This document shows, in pieces, positions 8,193 to 37,191 of a DNA stretch of 51,090 nt; position 1 is the stretch's first letter; the number at the start of each line of letters is the position of its first letter. A program made the translations under genes and the position numbers. The notes below the pieces were generated by a model. It did not search any database, was not told the DNA's origin, and saw only the letters and a list, made by a program, of their open reading frames with translations. The stretch is from positions 1 through 51,090 of the forward strand of contig JBDRGM010000040.1 of the NCBI GenBank assembly GCA_043817815.1, in the 5' to 3' direction. The stretch comes from an archaeon (lineage in GTDB: Archaea; Nanobdellota; Nanobdellia; Pacearchaeales; GW2011-AR1).

Positions 8193-8398
8193 GAAAAGAA
8201 TAAGGATGAAGGATATTTAAAAGTTTGGTCAAAAGATTTTTAAACTTTGGTTTTGTTAATAGATTATGTTGATGAATATGAGCTCAAGTTCTGTAAGTAG
8301 TTCTAGTTCCAACTAATTCAAAATCTCTTGGGATTTTGAAGTTTTTTTTGAGGTTCTTTGAGATAAATTTAAATACAAAATAAATATGGTAATATAAG

Positions 8399-9706
8399 AT
8401 GATAGATATTAAGTTAATTAGGGATAATCCTGAATTGGTAAAGGGGAATATTAAGAAAAAATTTCAGGATGAGAAGCTTGGATTTGTTGATGAAGTTAAG
8501 AGGTTAGATGAAGAGTGGAGAAAGTTGAGGTTTGACGAGGATAAATTGAGGAGTGATAGAAATAAGATTTCTAATAAGATTAATGGGCTGAAGAAAAATA
8601 ATAAGAAAGCGGATAAAGAGATTAAGGAAGCTAAAGAAATTCCTAAGAAGATTGCTAAGTCTCAGGAGGAGAGGAAGAAGCTTGAGATTAAGATTCGTGA
8701 GATGATGTATAAAATTCCGAATATAATTCATGAGTCTGTGCCTGCTGGAGAATCAGACAAGGATAATGTGGAAATAAAAAAATGGGGAAAGATTCCCAAA
8801 TTTAATTTTTCTGTTAAGAATCATGTTGAGATAATGGAGTCTTTGAACTTGGGGGATTTTGATGCTTCTGCAAGAGTTTCAGGAAAAGGGTTTTATTATT
8901 TGAAAAATGAGCTTGCTTTACTTAATCAGGCATTGATCAGATTTGGAATTGATTTTATGAAAAAGAGAGGATATGAATATATTGAGACGCCGTTGATGTT
9001 AAATGAAAAATCAGTTTACGCTTCAATGGATAAGAAGGCGATTGAAGAATCTGTTTATTCAATTGACGGTGAGGATTTGAATTTGATTGGAACTGCTGAG
9101 CAATCGTTGTTGGCGATGCATTCTGGCGACACGATTCCTGAATGGGAACTGCCGAAAAAATATTTTTCTTATTCAATGTGTTTTAGAAAAGAGATTGGGG
9201 CTCATGGAATAAATGAAAAAGGTTTGTGGAGAACGCATCAGTTTAATAAAGTTGAGCAGTTTGTTTTTTGCAAGCCAGAAGATTCTGAAAAAATTTATGA
9301 TGAACTATTAAAAAATTCAGAGGAAATTTTGAGAGAGTTAGAATTACCTTATCGTGTTTTGCAATTATGTACAGGAGATTTAGCTGACTGGAAATATCAG
9401 AGTGCTGATTTGGAAGTTTGGAGACCTACGACAAAAGAGTATGGTGAAGTTGTTTCTTTATCTAATTGTACTGATTATCAAGCAAGAAAATTAAATATAA
9501 GGTGTGTTGATAAAAAAGGGAATAGAAGAATTCTTCACACTTTGAATGACACTGCTTTAGCAACTTCTAGAATAATGGTTGCTATTTTGGAGAATAACCA
9601 GCAAAAAGATGGTTCTATAAAAATTCCTAAAGCTTTGTGGAAGTATACTGGATTTAAAGAAATAAAGATGAAGAAAAATGGTAAAAAAAAGGGGATTAAA
9701 AAATAA
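8399..9706 (+). CDS. serS: Seryl-tRNA synthetase
   Basis: N-terminal [14 protein letters not shown] coiled-coil arm. Class II motifs FRKEIGAHG...[12 protein letters not shown] and [17 protein letters not shown]. Lys-rich C-terminal tail. Confidence 0.92.
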
Positions 9707-9905
9707 CTTAGATAAATATCTTTTGTTAAGTTGGAGAAAGATTTGGATAATTGTTGTTGGGGGATTTGTTTCTATTTTGTTGCATAATGTGTTTTATGCA
9801 GTGTTTGGTTTTGAAGAGCCTGTGTTTTTTAGTATTGTTGTTTTTGTTCTTCCAATTTATTTTGTTGTTTCTGTGGGTTATAGTTTGATTAAGAGATTTA
9901 GATAA
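9678..9905 (+). CDS. Possible small two-helix membrane protein
   Basis: ORF overlapping the serS 3' end. Two hydrophobic helices. No homology recognised. Confidence 0.3.
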
Positions 9906-10095
9906 TTTTAAAAACAGATTTCTGTACTATATTTTATCAAAAACCTTTGGTTTAGGTGATTTCCCTGTCAGAGGTCGAGCAATGTTCGTGAAACTCTTTC
10001 GCCCTTGGTTTTGAGCGGGCTCGGGAGTTTTGAATAAATTGCTTCACAGGAACAGGAAAGTAAGATTCAAAAAAACTGATTTGGTGTTTTGATAT

Positions 10096-10167
10096 GCCTA
10101 CGTTGTCCAGTGGCTAAGACACATCCCTGTCGCGGATGAGATCCGGGTTCAATTCCCGGCGTGGGCG
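10096..10167 (+). tRNA. tRNA-Asp (GTC)
   Basis: Hand-folded cloverleaf: acceptor GCCTACG/CGTGGGC, D arm GTCC-AGTGGCTA-AGAC, anticodon arm CATCC-CTGTCGC-GGATG, variable AGAT, T arm CCGGG-TTCAATT-CCCGG, discriminator G73. CCA is not cleanly encoded (TCCA follows). Confidence 0.9.
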
Positions 10168-10168
10168 T
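10158..10168 (+). repeat. Repeat copy R1: GGCGTGGGCGT (3' end of tRNA-Asp plus 1 nt)
   Basis: Master copy of an 11-mer that recurs three times downstream in direct orientation. Confidence 0.85.
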
Positions 10169-10312
10169 CCAATCTCCGAAAACTTCTTTTATCCCCAAGG
10201 TTAATCTATATACTTTATCTCGACAACTTTTATAAATCATCTACATCAACGACAACAGCGATGGAAAATACAATAACCTCCAATTTTAAGCCAAACAAAA
10301 ACCGATTCTCAC

Positions 10313-10350
10313 GGATGTGCCAAGACGGGCAAGTCGTCGGCGTGGGCGTA
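10313..10350 (+). repeat. Decayed copy of the tRNA-Asp 3' half, ending in repeat R2 (GGCGTGGGCGTA at 10339-10350)
   Basis: GGATG (10313-10317) lies 26 nt before the exact 11-mer, against 24 nt in the tRNA. The trailer CTCCCGAAAC resembles the tRNA trailer CTCCGAAAAC. The T-arm part is replaced by a different hairpin. An extra GGGCGTA lies at 10364-10370. Confidence 0.7.
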
Positions 10351-10428
10351 AGACTCCCGAAACGGGCGTATTTTTCTTGAGGATTTGTAATTAGTAAGAT
10401 TTAAAAGGAATTTTCAAGATAGATTATT

Positions 10429-10668
10429 ATGATATACCCCTGGAATCATTTGAGTAAGAAATCTTTAAATATTTTTGAAGCTGAAAAAGGGAAATTAATG
10501 AAAGCTTTACGTTTTATTGATTTGGCTTTTGTTCCTTCTTCAGGAATAAGGGAAATGATTAAATTAAAGAAAGAAGGATCTTTGGATTTTTATAATGTAA
10601 TTGGGCATAGTCTTTATGAGGGTGTGAAATTAAGTGTCTATTATCATATGTATAATAATTTTTCTTAG
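10429..10668 (+). CDS. Hypothetical 79-aa protein (cargo of the second repeat-bounded unit)
   Basis: ORF only. No recognisable motif. Confidence 0.35.
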   Translation: MIYPWNHLSKKSLNIFEAEKGKLMKALRFIDLAFVPSSGIREMIKLKKEGSLDFYNVIGHSLYEGVKLSVYYHMYNNFS

Positions 10669-10686
10669 ATTCCCAAAATGCTACCT

Positions 10687-10697
10687 GTGTGGGCGTA
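10687..10697 (+). repeat. Repeat copy R3: GTGTGGGCGTA (one mismatch)
   Basis: Read directly. Direct orientation, followed by A and AT-rich DNA like R2 and R4. Confidence 0.65.
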
Positions 10698-10756
10698 AAA
10701 ATAGAAAGATTTATATATTATAGCCTTCTATAAGTAATTATAATAATTAATATAAA

Positions 10757-10966
10757 ATGTCTACAACAATACAAATTTCAAATAGTGTAAAAGAAGCATT
10801 AGATAATCTTAAATTGCTAGAAAGAGAAACTTACAATGAAGTTATTGAAAATATGTTGGAAGATAATTTGGATTTAAATGAAAAAACATTAAGCGAAATA
10901 AAAGAAAGAAAAAATAGCAAAGATTGGGTTTCTATAGAAGATGTTGAAAAGCATTTGGGACTATGA
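10757..10966 (+). CDS. Putative antitoxin (partner of the RelE/ParE toxin)
   Basis: 69-aa acidic protein immediately upstream of the RelE-like gene, overlapping it by 4 nt (ATGA). Confidence 0.6.
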   Translation: MSTTIQISNSVKEALDNLKLLERETYNEVIENMLEDNLDLNEKTLSEIKERKNSKDWVSIEDVEKHLGL

Positions 10967-11214
10967 TTTATAAAATTAAATTTGAGAAAAGAGCTTTTCA
11001 AGAGTTAGATAAATTAGATCAAATTATCTCTAGACGAATACTAAGGAATATAAAAGAATTGAAGGAAAGTTTTCATACTAAAGATGTTAAAAGATTAAAA
11101 GGTCAGAACATTTATAGATTAAGGATTGGAAATTATCGGGTTCTTTTTTATATAGAAAATGATTTGATTAGTATTCTTAAAGTAGGACATAGAAAAAATA
11201 TATATAAATATTAA
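10963..11214 (+). CDS. relE: RelE/ParE-family toxin
   Basis: 83 aa with the family signature ...YRLRIGNYRVLFYIENDLISILKVGHRKNIY. Confidence 0.85.
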   Translation: MIYKIKFEKRAFQELDKLDQIISRRILRNIKELKESFHTKDVKRLKGQNIYRLRIGNYRVLFYIENDLISILKVGHRKNIYKY

Positions 11215-11236
11215 CCCCCACTTTTTGGCAATATTT

Positions 11237-11267
11237 ATGTTAAGGAAACTAAGTTAAATCTTAACAT
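11237..11267 (+). other. Hairpin ATGTTAAG-N15-CTTAACAT between the toxin stop and repeat R4
   Basis: Perfect 8-bp inverted repeat read directly. Either a terminator or a recombination-site structure. Confidence 0.4.
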
Positions 11268-11275
11268 AAAGTCTT

Positions 11276-11287
11276 GGCGTGGGCGTA
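11276..11287 (+). repeat. Repeat copy R4: GGCGTGGGCGTA (exact)
   Basis: Read directly. Direct orientation. Confidence 0.8.
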
Positions 11288-11334
11288 TCTCTTTAACACT
11301 TAATATTTATAAACATAAATTTCTTCAATAGATT

Positions 11335-11436
11335 ATGACAAAGAAAAGATTAAAACCTCATAAAAAAAGGTCAATGGAAAGAAGAGCTAGAAGTGGGAAA
11401 AAACCAAGGGCAAAAGAGATAACTTTGAAGAAATAA
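11335..11436 (+). CDS. Possible 33-aa highly basic peptide (MTKKRLKPHKKRSMERRARSGKKPRAKEITLKK)
   Basis: Below the ORF-track cutoff; found by reading. ATG to TAA. Arg/Lys-rich like small ribosomal or nucleic-acid-binding proteins, but no family recognised. Confidence 0.25.
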   Translation: MTKKRLKPHKKRSMERRARSGKKPRAKEITLKK

Positions 11437-11553
11437 GGAATTTTATAACTAATTATGAATGTTTTTGTCAGGAGTTTGGTTTAACATTATTAATCTTAGA
11501 TAAGAACTTTTTTAAACCCTTGAAATTGATTATATCTATTGGAGGAAAAAACA

Positions 11554-11745
11554 ATGAAAGGAACAGTAAAATTTTTCAATATTGAAAAAGAATTTGGCTT
11601 TATAGTTGGAGAAGATGAACAAGAATATTTCGTGCATAAGACTGGTCTTCAGGAAGGCGTAACTCTTGATAAAGATGATGTAGTTACATTTGAAACAGAG
11701 AAAGGCGATAAAGGCATTAAAGCAGTTAAAGTAGCTAAGGCATAA
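11554..11745 (+). CDS. Cold-shock domain protein (CspA family)
   Basis: MKGTVKFFNIEKEFGFI...YFVH contains RNP1/RNP2-like motifs. The ATG at 11554 is preceded by GGAGGA; the track ORF starts upstream at 11539. Confidence 0.85.
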   Translation: MKGTVKFFNIEKEFGFIVGEDEQEYFVHKTGLQEGVTLDKDDVVTFETEKGDKGIKAVKVAKA

Positions 11746-26167: not shown

Positions 26168-27745
26168 ATGACAGCAGGTAATGACCAAGATATTCCTGAG
26201 ATGAATCTTGACAGAAAATATGCTGATAAAAAATCTGTGGTTCCTGAAAATCCAGAGAAGATTCAAAAAGAAATGGAAGAGACTAAGAAAGAACTTGGGA
26301 AGTTGAAGTCTTTTATAACGAAAAAATATTCTGAAACTATTGCAATAAGTATTTTGCCACCTCAGATTATTAAGAAATTTATTGAGGAGGAAGAAGTTCC
26401 TAAAGAAACTGAAAAGTATATTCATATTTATGTGGTTATTCCTGAAGAGAAAGTTAAGGAAATCCCAAAGATGAAACTTGAAATAATTAAACAGCTTGAT
26501 TTATTGCAGAAGAATTTAAAGCACCCTGAAGGGCATAAACAGAAGATTTGGTTACAGATTAAAACTCCTGTTGATGTTTGGGAGATGTGTCTTGATAGCA
26601 AGTTTGAATTGTTCCAAGCGGTTTCAATGTCTTTTCCACTTTATGATAAGGGTTTTTTAGGTTCATTAAGAGTTGCTGAAATTCATAAATCATTAGTCTT
26701 GCAAAAATTTGAGAAATATGTTGTGAGTTATGTTCTTGTTGGAAGTTTTCAGCGAGGAGATGCGACAAAGACAAGTGATATTGATGTGTTTGTGGTTATT
26801 AATGATACTGATGTAAAAAGGATGCCTCGTCTTGAATTAAAAGAAAGACTTAGAAGTATTATTTATCAGTATGTTGGTGAAGCACAGAATCTTGCGAGGG
26901 TAAAGAATGACTTACATATTCAGACATATCTTTTGACTGAATTTTGGGATGCGGTTAAAGATGCTAGTCCTGTTATTTTTACTTTTATTAGAGACGGGAT
27001 TCCAATTTATGACAGAGGAACATTTATGCCTTGGAAATCTTTATTAAAGATGGGAAAATTAAAACCCTCTCCTGAATCAATTGATATGTTTATGAAAACT
27101 GCAGATAAAACAAAGGAGATGATTGAGAGAAGCTTGGTTGATGCAATGATTGATGTTTATTATGGGGTGTTGACTCCGTCGCAGGCTTTGATTATGTTGA
27201 ATGGTTCACCCCCTCCAACACATAAAGAAACTCCAATATTAATGAATGAGGTTTTTGTTAAAAAAGAAAAAATGTTAAAGAAGAATGAACTTGCTATTCT
27301 TGAGAAATCTGTTAAGTTGTTTAAGGCATATGAACATGATACTAAGTTTAAAATTTCTGGAGCAGAAATAGATAATCTTGTTAAAGAGTCTGGAGAATAT
27401 TTGAAGAGACTTAAGGATTTGAGAGGGCAGATTGAAAAGAGATCTCAGGAAAAAATAATTGAGCAAATTTATCAGGATGTTTTTGATTTGTTAAAGACAA
27501 TTGTTGGGAAAAAAGCTCAAAAGCAAATGATAGAAGATTTTGAAAATGATTTTGTTAAGAAAGGAAAGTTTGCTCCTCAATCTTTGAAAATTTTGAATAA
27601 TGTTGTTAGTGCAAGAGCGCAATTTAAGAAAGGAAAACTTAATGCTCACAAGGTTGATGAGGCTAGAAAAGACGCTGGAATTTTGATTAATGATTTGATT
27701 GAGTATAATCAAAGATGTGATTTGGTTAATGGTGTGAAGGAATAA
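26168..27745 (+). CDS. Pol-beta-type nucleotidyltransferase protein (degenerate + active NTase modules, helical C-terminal region)
   Basis: Active-site-like VGSFQRGDATKTSDIDVFVVIND. An upstream segment (ISILPP...IHIYVVIPEE...PLYDKG) mirrors the active module (VLVGSF...IDVFVVIND...PIYDRG) without the catalytic residues. The C-terminal half aligns by eye with the 30650..31576 protein. Confidence 0.65.
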   Translation: MTAGNDQDIPEMNLDRKYADKKSVVPENPEKIQKEMEETKKELGKLKSFITKKYSETIAISILPPQIIKKFIEEEEVPKETEKYIHIYVVIPEEKVKEIPKMKLEIIKQLDLLQKNLKHPEGHKQKIWLQIKTPVDVWEMCLDSKFELFQAVSMSFPLYDKGFLGSLRVAEIHKSLVLQKFEKYVVSYVLVGSFQRGDATKTSDIDVFVVINDTDVKRMPRLELKERLRSIIYQYVGEAQNLARVKNDLHIQTYLLTEFWDAVKDASPVIFTFIRDGIPIYDRGTFMPWKSLLKMGKLKPSPESIDMFMKTADKTKEMIERSLVDAMIDVYYGVLTPSQALIMLNGSPPPTHKETPILMNEVFVKKEKMLKKNELAILEKSVKLFKAYEHDTKFKISGAEIDNLVKESGEYLKRLKDLRGQIEKRSQEKIIEQIYQDVFDLLKTIVGKKAQKQMIEDFENDFVKKGKFAPQSLKILNNVVSARAQFKKGKLNAHKVDEARKDAGILINDLIEYNQRCDLVNGVKE

Positions 27746-30649: not shown

Positions 30650-31576
30650 TCACCCAATAATACTATTAACTAAATTAGCCATTGTGGCTAAGAATTCTTC
30701 TGTTCGTTGTTGCCATGCGTCTATTTCAACGCCTTTGAGGTCGTGGATTTTTCCGTGAGCAATTTCTTTGTGGAGTATGAGAAGGTCTCTGTACCAGATA
30801 ACATATTTCATATCTAGTTTTTTATTGTTTACAAAATTTTCTTTTAATTCAATTGAAATATGTTCTGGCGAAGGAGGTGATATGCCTGTTGCAATTAAAG
30901 CAGCGTGAGCAGAGTCAACCATTGCCCAGTAAAGTCCTTCAATAGCGCTGAGTTCTGCAATTTTACTTCTCATTATATGTCCTGGTGCTCTTTGAAGTGC
31001 AGCGTAAATTGCTTCTGGTGTTGGTCTTATTTTTCCTTTAATTAATAAGAATTTTAGTGGTTCGAAAAATCCTCCAAAGTCAATCATTGATTCTCCGTAT
31101 CTAATAATGTTGATAACAACAGGGTCGCCCCGTATCAAATCTTCCCACCAAGTGCTTAATTTGATTGTATTGATGTGTAGATTTTTTTTGTAGGGGTTTG
31201 CCCTTAGGATTTTATCAAGTTCTTCTCTGTACCAAACAATTAATTTTTGGTCCCACATTATCGAAACATCATCTATTAGAATTATTATATCAATATCAGA
31301 ACCTGTTGTTGAGGATTTTTTTGCTGCAGAACCAAAGAGAACAATTGATTTAACCATCTTATCAAATCTTTGGTAGACGCGCACTGCAAAATCCATTGCA
31401 ATGTCAGACTCTGATTTTAGTTTTAAAGTTGGAATATCTTTTTGCCTGATTTTTTTTACTTTTGGTTTTTTGGGTTTCTTTTTATCTTTGATAATTTTTG
31501 ATTCAATTTTTTTAGAAATATTTTCTCTTGCTTGCTCTTGCGCCTTGATTTTTTTTTCTGTTTTTTTCTTCACCAT
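30650..31576 (-). CDS. Pol-beta-type nucleotidyltransferase protein with helical C-terminal domain and Lys-rich N-terminus
   Basis: LFGSAAKKSSTTGSDIDIIILIDD (GS...DxD). Downstream region is similar to the 26168..27745 protein (PV(V/I)...I(R)(Y/D)G...(I/Y)D.G.F.P...LL..GK(I/L)(R/K)P(T/S)PE(A/S)I). Confidence 0.65.
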   Translation of the reverse strand: MVKKKTEKKIKAQEQARENISKKIESKIIKDKKKPKKPKVKKIRQKDIPTLKLKSESDIAMDFAVRVYQRFDKMVKSIVLFGSAAKKSSTTGSDIDIIILIDDVSIMWDQKLIVWYREELDKILRANPYKKNLHINTIKLSTWWEDLIRGDPVVINIIRYGESMIDFGGFFEPLKFLLIKGKIRPTPEAIYAALQRAPGHIMRSKIAELSAIEGLYWAMVDSAHAALIATGISPPSPEHISIELKENFVNNKKLDMKYVIWYRDLLILHKEIAHGKIHDLKGVEIDAWQQRTEEFLATMANLVNSIIG

Positions 31577-36222: not shown

Positions 36223-37191
36223 ATGAAATTTGCAAAAAAAACAGAATTACACTGTCAATTTATGAAAGTGGTTAATCAGTTGGTTAAAAAGAAAATTAGT
36301 AAAGAACCAATCGAAGTGATTATTCTAGGAGGAAGTGTTGCTCGTGGTGACGAGACAGAAGAGAGTGATATTGATGTTGTTTTTTATGTAAAGAAAAAAG
36401 ACATGCCTGCTAATCCTCAAAGATTTTACAAATTTAAAGGCAAGTATATTGAGGAGCATTATTCTACAATTGAAAACTTAAAATCAAAGAGCATATTACC
36501 TGAAGAAAAAATTTTATATGATAAAAAAGGGAAAATTCCAAAACTCTTCTTTGATGAGAAATGGGCTAAAAAAGATTTTAATGGAGATTTAAAAGATGCG
36601 AAGAAATCACAAAAGATTGCAGAAAAGAAATTTTCAGAAGGAAATTATGACTTGGTATTCAATTATTTATATGGGATAAAAAGTCCCTCTTTTCTTATGA
36701 TGCATGCTATTCCTCCCAGGTTTAATCTTCCTTTTCCTAGTTTTAGGCTGCTGGGAAGCATAAGAAAAATAGATAAAAAACATAAGACAAGATCATATTT
36801 GTTAATCAAGCAACTTTATGAATTTGAGAATAAAGATTGCAAAAGAGTTTTGGGAGATTTTAAGAAGGCGTATTTCTTAATGAATCAACTGGAGCAAAAG
36901 AAAAAACCGAGAGTAAAAAATCTTGGCTTTTATGATAAGTTGAAAATTGATTATAATGTTAAGGGATTGAAGAGAACCTTTGAGGATTACCCTTTTGTAT
37001 ATGCTTATAGGTTTATCGTCGGGTGTTTGGTTATGTGGACATTTGATGAGAAAATTCAAAGAAAGGACAGGGAAATATTTCATATTTTTTTGTTAAAAAT
37101 TTTGGGTGTTGAGAGGATTAGTAAAGAGTTAGTTAAAGAAAAATTAGAACTTTCCAGGAATTTGGTTAAGGAATGTGAGAAGTTGAAATGA
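36223..37191 (+). CDS. Nucleotidyltransferase-domain protein (kanamycin-NTase-like architecture)
   Basis: ILGGSVARGDETEESDIDVVFYV (GS...DxD) followed by a helical C-terminal region. Starts 1 nt after the ABC stop. Confidence 0.65.
   Translation: MKFAKKTELHCQFMKVVNQLVKKKISKEPIEVIILGGSVARGDETEESDIDVVFYVKKKDMPANPQRFYKFKGKYIEEHYSTIENLKSKSILPEEKILYDKKGKIPKLFFDEKWAKKDFNGDLKDAKKSQKIAEKKFSEGNYDLVFNYLYGIKSPSFLMMHAIPPRFNLPFPSFRLLGSIRKIDKKHKTRSYLLIKQLYEFENKDCKRVLGDFKKAYFLMNQLEQKKKPRVKNLGFYDKLKIDYNVKGLKRTFEDYPFVYAYRFIVGCLVMWTFDEKIQRKDREIFHIFLLKILGVERISKELVKEKLELSRNLVKECEKLK

Follow-up and report, generated by a model that had tools for sequence, protein, structure and literature searches.

Tandem accretion of elements at a tRNA or transfer-messenger RNA (tmRNA) gene, followed by decay to units resembling cis-mobilizable elements (CIMEs), is an established principle in bacteria and in archaea outside the DPANN group. 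The locus described here occupies positions 10096-11287 of a 51,090-nucleotide stretch of DNA from a DPANN-type archaeon (contig JBDRGM010000040.1 of assembly GCA_043817815.1), which is referred to as the window and was analyzed at its full length. In this locus, the last bases of the tRNA-Asp gene are repeated downstream such that four copies, counting the one in the gene itself, bound three small units that probably arose through the same known process, here in a little-studied group.

The ssrA islands of Dehalococcoides lie in tandem, with a 20-bp repeat of the ssrA end at their boundaries; 15 islands are without an integration module and have been discussed as CIMEs (McMurdie et al. 2011, PMC3146451). 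The tRNA-Asp arrays share with these islands the tandem arrangement of units after a structured-RNA gene and the direct repeats of the 3′ end of that gene as unit boundaries (PMC3146451). Further common features are an integrase module at the left attachment site (attL), many units without an integration module, and a load that varies between strains. In contrast, the Dehalococcoides islands employ the serine recombinase DsiB, a 20-bp repeat, and a tmRNA gene in a bacterium, whereas the present system harbors a Xer-like tyrosine recombinase, a core of 11-14 nt, and units down to 62-600 bp at the tRNA-Asp gene of DPANN archaea.

CIMEs, described together with tandem accretion for ICESt1-type elements (Pavlovic et al. 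2004; reviewed in PMC5704250), keep attL and the right attachment site (attR) and have lost their integration genes. The tRNA-Asp arrays resemble them in having attachment (att) site-bounded units without integration genes that are stacked with same-site elements (PMC5704250). However, the definition of CIMEs comes from conjugative bacterial systems, and cis-mobilization has been shown for them experimentally, whereas the present case is built on sequence evidence and involves no conjugation genes.

In archaea, PYG1 and the Thermococcales elements are integrative elements that reside in tRNA genes and have a tRNA fragment as attR (PMC9897764). As in the loci described here, a tyrosine integrase acts at the 3′ end of the tRNA, a partial tRNA copy is found at the far end, and loss of the integrase can leave the element captured in the chromosome. 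The repeats of these archaeal elements are typically ~40-50 bp, the elements span 9-23 kb, and SSV-type integrases are split on integration; in the present loci, by contrast, the core measures 11-14 nt, the integrase remains intact beside attL, and up to 4-6 copies are found within 1-10 kb. Integrative elements in archaeal tRNA genes were also reportedly the subject of work by She et al. in 2001 under the title "Gene capture in archaeal chromosomes".

Integrons and clusters of attC sites lacking integron integrases (CALINs), archaeal ones included, likewise present small, often single-gene cassettes between recombination sites (Ghaly et al. 2022, PMC9668308). Toxin-antitoxin cassettes are common among them, and arrays without an adjacent integrase exist (PMC9668308). 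Integrons utilize an IntI enzyme with a specific extra domain and a folded attC that is recombined single-stranded (PMC9668308), whereas the cores described here are of a double-strand type, copied from a tRNA, and go with a Xer-like enzyme.

The window has a G+C content of 31% and encodes a thermosome, a form II/III-type RuBisCO large subunit, and archaeal tRNAs. Both the close homologs of its proteins and the matching tRNA-Asp loci are found in metagenome-assembled genomes (MAGs) of Pacearchaeota, Woesearchaeota, and Nanoarchaeota. The tRNA-Asp(GTC) gene lies on the + strand at 10096-10167 (Infernal, 57.1 bits; ARAGORN places it at 10095-10171). Its last 10 nt and the first base of the trailer form the attL-side core, GGCGTGGGCGT (10158-10168, +). 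The original prediction that this 3′ end is repeated stands, as GGCGTGGGCGT occurs exactly at 10158, 10339, and 11276, all on the + strand. Copy 2 (10339-10349) extends to CGGCGTGGGCGT when the preceding base is included, and copy 4 (11276-11286) is the outermost, attR-like site. Copy 3 (10687-10697, +) is degenerate and reads GTGTGGGCGTA; it had been credited with one mismatch, but in register with the 11-mer (10686-10696) there are two, though the 9-mer GTGGGCGTA is intact and common to both. The window thereby contains three exact 11-mers and one 9-mer as direct, same-orientation repeats within 1.2 kb. Two smaller details were also read correctly at first: an A directly follows each non-tRNA copy, and an extra partial core, GGGCGTA, is located at 10364-10370 (+), starting 15 nt past the end of copy 2. 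The latter is a member of repeat family D1, and short GGGCGT echoes after the core are also seen in the related loci L007, L018, L004, and L036.

Chance, already judged a very unlikely source, is ruled out by shuffling and by composition. In dinucleotide shuffles of the window, 0.02 matches to GGCGTGGGCGT with at most one mismatch are expected, and at least three are reached in 0 of 100 shuffles. On the basis of composition, 2e-5 occurrences of the 11-mer and 1.6e-3 of the 9-mer (the latter figure for one strand) are expected in 1.2 kb. The 8-mer GTGGGCGT and the heptamer GGGCGTA (the 10364 copy included) each occur four times in the 51-kb window, in every case on the + strand and inside 10161-11287.

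Copy 2 had been interpreted as part of a decayed tRNA-Asp 3′ half. The underlying details are present, with GGATG 24 nt upstream of the core in the tRNA and 26 nt upstream of copy 2, and with both trailers, CTCCGAAAAC and CTCCCGAAAC. The interpretation itself is marginal: the similarity to the tRNA 3′ half is marginal on the left flank, in the last 40 nt of the first unit (p = 0.007-0.03), and not significant on the right flank, and Infernal identifies no partial tRNA at this position. Stringent local alignment of the copies with the tRNA returns the cores alone, and softer scoring gives marginal support to the left flank of copy 2 only. A tRNA-like minihelix or partial tRNA at the copies was rejected, as Infernal (E <= 10) finds the real tRNA-Asp alone; inspection of the sequence reveals no acceptor-complementary strand upstream of any of the copies.

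Unit 1 (10169-10338, +) extends from tRNA-Asp to copy 2 and comprises 170 bp of non-coding DNA with no credible open reading frame (ORF) and no Pfam match. Unit 2 carries a 79-aa orphan ORF (10429-10668, +) that has no Pfam match and whose sole match among 5.8 billion proteins is itself. The third unit encodes a type II toxin-antitoxin module in which a small antitoxin gene precedes, and overlaps by 4 nt, the gene of a small toxin with a ParE/RelE fold. The antitoxin (10757-10966, +; 69 aa) is of the ribbon-helix-helix/VapB-like kind, with 30 bits to Pfam DUF7557 (cut-off 25) and 26 bits to VAPB_antitox, and the 83-aa toxin (10963-11214, +) scores 39.8 bits against ParE_toxin (cut-off 23). The toxin has 99 homologs, and the named ones among them are mostly of Pace-, Woese-, or Nanoarchaeota. 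At the DNA level, the module is 80-93% identical to modules on other contigs, where it resides in unrelated contexts. This homology stops at the toxin stop codon and begins within 2 nt of copy 3, for which reason copy 3 is regarded as a real junction. The module was also considered as a core-bounded unit elsewhere, and this was rejected: L051 and L183 are without cores, L052 keeps a core-like sequence, GGCTGGGGCGTATTCTTAACA, after the toxin as its right end only, and L050 is cut by the contig end.

Between the toxin gene and copy 4, a hairpin (11234-11270, +) has a perfect 11-bp stem (11234-11244 / 11260-11270), longer than the 8 bp first reported, and a 15-nt loop; it ends 5 nt before the core and is a possible terminator. 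A GTTAAA...TAA...GT stretch similar to the right-end arm found in L007-type elements is overlapped by the hairpin, and the left flank of copy 4 as a whole (GTTAAA...TAA...GT..GGCG) resembles the element right-end arm in L007 and L045. The stretch from the last core to the conserved backbone genes contains a highly basic ORF of 33 aa (11335-11436) and a bacterial-type cold-shock protein (11539-11745; Pfam CSD, 5.7e-15), both as originally annotated, along with the orphan, antitoxin, and toxin ORFs. Possibly, these two genes are part of an older island that has lost its outer att site to decay.

The enzyme that could have produced such an array was sought in the window with phmmer, with tblastn using 120 members of the integrase family described below, and with Pfam scans of 40 window ORFs, which took in most of the longer ones and left out several, including four of 450-600 aa; no recombinase was found by any of these, in agreement with the original prediction. 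The relatives are different in this respect. Species-representative genomes scanned for the tRNA-Asp 3′ half yielded 41 loci, nearly all from DPANN MAGs, which with the window and L045 amount to 43. Downstream of tRNA-Asp in these 43 loci, the heptamer GTGGGCG occurs 23 times on the tRNA strand and 0 times on the other, while upstream it occurs five times on the + and three times on the - strand. Given this bias in strand and position, tRNA-Asp-end repeats are a general trait of the lineage rather than something peculiar to the window.

In L007, tRNA-Asp and the core are followed by a 400-aa tyrosine recombinase (Pfam Phage_integrase, 2.7e-23) and, 6.1 kb on, by a further copy of the 12-nt core CGGCGTGGGCGT. 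The same scaffold contains an attP-type junction composed of the element right end, one core, and the element left end, with the core flanked by a 12-14-bp inverted repeat (GGGCGTTAAACT / AGTTTAACGCCC). The junction would fit an excised circle or a tandem copy; it borders a 100-N scaffold gap, and an assembly artifact is possible. Members of the same integrase family are also located directly 3′ of tRNA-Asp, at a distance of no more than ~60 nt, in L048/L049 and L175, where the core matches each host's own tRNA end and the integrases have a common upstream motif, AAAAGTT.AA.GCCCTTAATCGTGG. L175 has the gene order of the window, with a Na/H exchanger, seryl-tRNA synthetase (SerRS), small ORF(s), and tRNA-Asp, at an ortholog identity of ~50%. 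The integrase gene thus lies inside a repeat-bounded unit next to attL in L007, L048/L049, and L175, an arrangement that is absent from the window. An unbroken integrase ORF begins 60-110 nt past the core in L007, L048, and L175; an SSV-type partitioning integrase was rejected because the ORF is unsplit in these three loci.

The integrase family comprises 681 matches (E <= 1e-5) of ~390 aa with an invariant C-terminal CxxC...CxxC motif. Its best NCBIfam match is XerA (121 bits, cut-off 220), while the integron-integrase model TIGR02249 reaches 44.5 bits (cut-off 265), and the nearest solved structures are archaeal XerA/XerC-like proteins. On this basis, the family is classified as Xer-like with a predicted C-terminal zinc ribbon, which supplies the enzyme class missing from the original prediction, where a tyrosine recombinase was to be sought elsewhere. 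Cargo beside the family integrases includes a D5-type primase, ArdC, a DUF87 ATPase, and a reverse transcriptase, which are typical of plasmids and viruses. A viral origin was discarded, as IMG/VR scans with the integrase and with the L007-type right-end pattern were empty; the 14-mer TCGGCGTGGGCGTA has 120 matches in IMG/VR, none below 40% G+C and none with an integrase. No description of the integrase family or of DPANN tRNA-Asp arrays was found in the literature searched. An episome-like JGI contig of 51,089 bp (L046), which carries ArdC, the DUF87 ATPase, and the reverse transcriptase, encodes a family integrase at 8290-9601 with CCGGTGGGGGCGT 110 nt upstream of the gene and no tRNA nearby; this sequence is likely an attP for a tRNA-Asp variant.

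Stages of loss and gain at the tRNA-Asp core are observed among the relatives. In L023, the integrase is reduced to a 112-aa N-terminal fragment beside tRNA-Asp, with genes for a nitroreductase and a YcaO protein after it; this provides direct evidence of integrase decay at the site. Between L011 and L012, the tRNA is identical and the downstream flanks are >90% identical, yet L011 has an extra 62 bp ending in a second GGCGTGGGCGT; this insert, present in one locus and absent from the other, is a case comparable to Unit 1. Backbone genes are kept around tRNA-Asp in other loci (a 75-aa membrane ORF upstream and genes of 391 aa and 107 aa downstream), whereas the DNA immediately 3′ of tRNA-Asp is variable between loci.

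L045 was recovered by a metagenome scan with copy 4 and its flank. It starts with the C-terminus of SerRS, followed by a small ORF and an intron-bearing tRNA-Asp, and therefore has its gene order in common with the window. Five further same-strand cores lie downstream of the tRNA (0.01 expected), and the five units that they bound contain an unknown protein together with PyrD; an 84-aa ORF; a beta-helix protein; a split PurH, PurB, and PurC; and a 95-aa ORF. All five are without an integrase, and gene orientation is mixed. Window copy 4 and both of its flanks align with L045 copy 5 over 57 nt (score 26.5; shuffle maximum 16), the right flank of copy 4 (11287-11330, +; ATCTCTTTAACAC...) being conserved with L045 and more weakly with L052. 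Relatives are therefore differently loaded at the repeat boundaries, as seen in L011 versus L012, in a tRNA-Ser pair discussed below (L178 versus L179), and in the other cassettes at the same site in L045.

Taken at a probability of roughly three in four, the best explanation is that mobile elements have integrated site-specifically, more than once, into the tRNA-Asp 3′ end of this DPANN archaeon, a member of the Pacearchaeota/Woesearchaeota group. The four copies would be the att cores that these events left behind, and the units would be integrase-less, CIME-like relics. The serial integration proposed at the outset gains support from the integrases in core-flanked elements (L007, L048/L049, and L175), the L023 stump, the L011/L012 difference, and L045; the last, with the gene order of the window, bears different cassettes at the same site, and its copy 5 is homologous to window copy 4. 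The three core-bounded units of the window are without a recombinase, and a matching integrase family is known from relatives, as would be expected of CIMEs. According to the proposed mechanism, complete elements carry the ~390-aa Xer-like tyrosine integrase with its C-terminal zinc ribbon at their left end, and this integrase would recombine an 11-14-nt attP core with the identical last bases of tRNA-Asp. Integration would rebuild the tRNA at attL and leave a direct core copy at attR. Further integrations into any core copy could then stack units in tandem (accretion), and deletion would subsequently strip the integrase and most of the cargo, such that the window may represent the end state with three integrase-less units. 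The toxin-antitoxin pair probably helps its own unit to resist loss.

Several observations weigh against this explanation. The resemblance to the L007-type right-end arm is kept by copy 4 only, and the cognate inverted arms of the window cassettes are weak, the best being 8 bp and matched by ~4% of non-cognate pairings. Units of 170-590 bp are far smaller than any complete element, so that extensive deletion must be assumed, and phmmer and tblastn detect no integrase remnants in the window. The attP-type junction of L007 is subject to the scaffold gap mentioned above. No family member came up in IMG/VR, whether the query was the integrase sequence, a profile of the integrase, or the L007-type right-end pattern. 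Finally, neither an empty-site allele (tRNA|ATCTCTTTAAC type) nor a different load was recovered for the window's own lineage from Logan contigs or the metagenome scan with copy 4 and its flank; two Logan contigs (SRR27458547 and SRR27458548) show the same arrangement as the window with 1-2 single-nucleotide polymorphisms, none in a core.

A different account is suggested by events at tRNA-Ser, where a sister integrase subfamily (60% identical) resides. The flanks of L178 and L179 are 100% identical, and a 626-bp cassette encoding a single GNAT acetyltransferase (L178 9314-9939) is absent from L179. The cassette is placed between tRNA-Ser and a resident family integrase, is bounded by a 14-bp direct repeat of the tRNA-Ser end (CCCAGTCTCGGCGT) and perfect 15-bp terminal inverted repeats, and is also found in L181 and L182. 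It looks like an integrase-less unit with its own attP-like site that moved recently, and on account of its polymorphism such cassettes may be handled in trans; there is, in other words, a hint that integrase-less cassettes can still move in trans. The units of the window could by the same token be active integrase-less cassettes, each with its own att site consisting of the core and inverted arms, that are inserted and excised in trans by a family integrase from another part of the genome, with the tRNA 3′ end acting like an attI platform. Besides the polymorphic GNAT cassette with its repeats and neighboring integrase, this account is favored by MAG GCA_018693795.1, in which the tRNA-Asp array (L038) is without an integrase and a different contig (L181) encodes one of the family, although the target of the L181 integrase is tRNA-Ser and not tRNA-Asp. 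In the window, a 6-bp inverted repeat also adjoins the exact copies 2 and 4, with AGTCTT ahead of copy 4 and AAGACT behind copy 2, and the L045 cassette between copies 3 and 4 keeps GGCGTTC/GAACG arms with L007-like spacing. Nevertheless, in most cassettes of the window and L045 the inverted arms do not exceed the level of non-cognate pairings, and a systematic test for cognate inverted arms is strong in L007 and the L178 GNAT cassette only. In addition, the toxin-antitoxin module is found without flanking cores in L051 and L183, and the Logan contigs and metagenome scan reveal no circular junction or allele polymorphism for the window units. Movement in trans is therefore considered unlikely for the window.

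A broader proposal along the same lines is held with similar reserve: Pace-, Woese-, and Nanoarchaeota might, at an outside chance, run an independently evolved, integron-like, tRNA-anchored cassette system of which the window array is one platform. Its parts would be integrase-less units of one or a few genes, a tRNA-end core with inverted arms, and zinc-ribbon Xer-like integrases encoded elsewhere and acting in trans. If so, genome-reduced symbionts could swap toxin-antitoxin, GNAT, Fic, and even purine and pyrimidine biosynthesis genes.

An origin without mobile elements, in which slippage or unequal crossing-over locally duplicated part of the tRNA-Asp 3′ end and trailer, would account for the slight similarity of copy 2 to the tRNA 3′ half and trailer beyond the core. 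Copies 3 and 4, however, are like the tRNA in the core alone, the DNA between the copies is unrelated from unit to unit, and the toxin-antitoxin module of one unit has copies 80-93% identical in other genomes. As relatives also carry integrases at this core and inserts that are present or absent precisely there, this origin is very improbable.

Least credible of all is a true integron or CALIN with attC-bounded cassettes and an IntI integrase. It would be in line with the small same-strand cassettes of the window, with the toxin-antitoxin module as a common cargo of chromosomal integrons, and with the report of integrons in Nanoarchaeota (PMC9668308), but the window has no IntI, and the family integrase remains far below the TIGR02249 cut-off. 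The sites are direct tRNA-end copies of 11-14 nt without an attC-like imperfect palindrome (as judged without a dedicated attC model), and the orientation of the L045 cassettes is mixed. The suggestion of an array analogous to integrons thus fails as far as membership is concerned, while a looser functional analogy, with integrase-less cassettes entering in trans beside a resident integrase, finds a hint in L178/L179. A transposon or miniature inverted-repeat transposable element with target-site duplication was rejected, as the unit ends are without terminal inverted repeats and four nested copies would be required.

Under the favored explanation, serial integration and decay, a widespread integrase family repeatedly uses the tRNA-Asp 3′ end as a landing site in DPANN archaea, whose genomes are tiny and whose gene gain is poorly understood; tRNA-Ser plays the same role for the sister subfamily. 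Integrase-less leftovers would pile up as small cassettes with cargo ranging from toxin-antitoxin modules to nucleotide metabolism (PyrD, PurH, PurB, and PurC in L045). The core repeats of tRNA ends provide a sequence signature with which horizontally acquired DNA can be mapped in these MAGs, and the pair of enzyme and site is testable.

Integrase-less islands with nucleotide-metabolism genes are present at tRNA-Asp in L045 (764-9446) and L016 (55-7238), the latter encoding a NUDIX protein, a thymidylate kinase, a glycosyltransferase family 3 protein, and a fusion of CCA-adding enzyme and methyltransferase. Such cargo is notable for genome-reduced DPANN archaea. The tRNA-Asp genes of L045 (618-763), L175 (about 9785-9945), and L023 harbor an intron of ~75 nt at the canonical position, and the window copy is intron-free; ARAGORN misses the intron-bearing genes of relatives. 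Contigs end inside or a few nucleotides from tRNA-Asp in L007, L009, L016, L021, and L034, and L016 and L021 belong to one MAG and abut at tRNA-Asp. These ends fit a branching of the assembly graph caused by alternative DNA after the core.

Upstream of tRNA-Asp in the window, a non-coding region that is G+C-rich for this genome (9902-10093) separates the gene from the 75-aa membrane ORF. It is partly conserved in distant relatives (84.6% over 65 nt in L011 and 80% over 66 nt in L041), has no Rfam match, and gives a fold z-score of only -1.08; candidate identities are a small RNA, a leader, and a promoter region. Exact look-ups of the window SerRS and cold-shock protein place neither on record. 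Farther downstream, three proteins with a nucleotidyltransferase domain (NTP_transf_2/Polbeta) are encoded within 11 kb (26168-27745, 30650-31576, and 36223-37191), and these are possibly components of toxin-antitoxin systems of the minimal nucleotidyltransferase (MNT) type or of defense.

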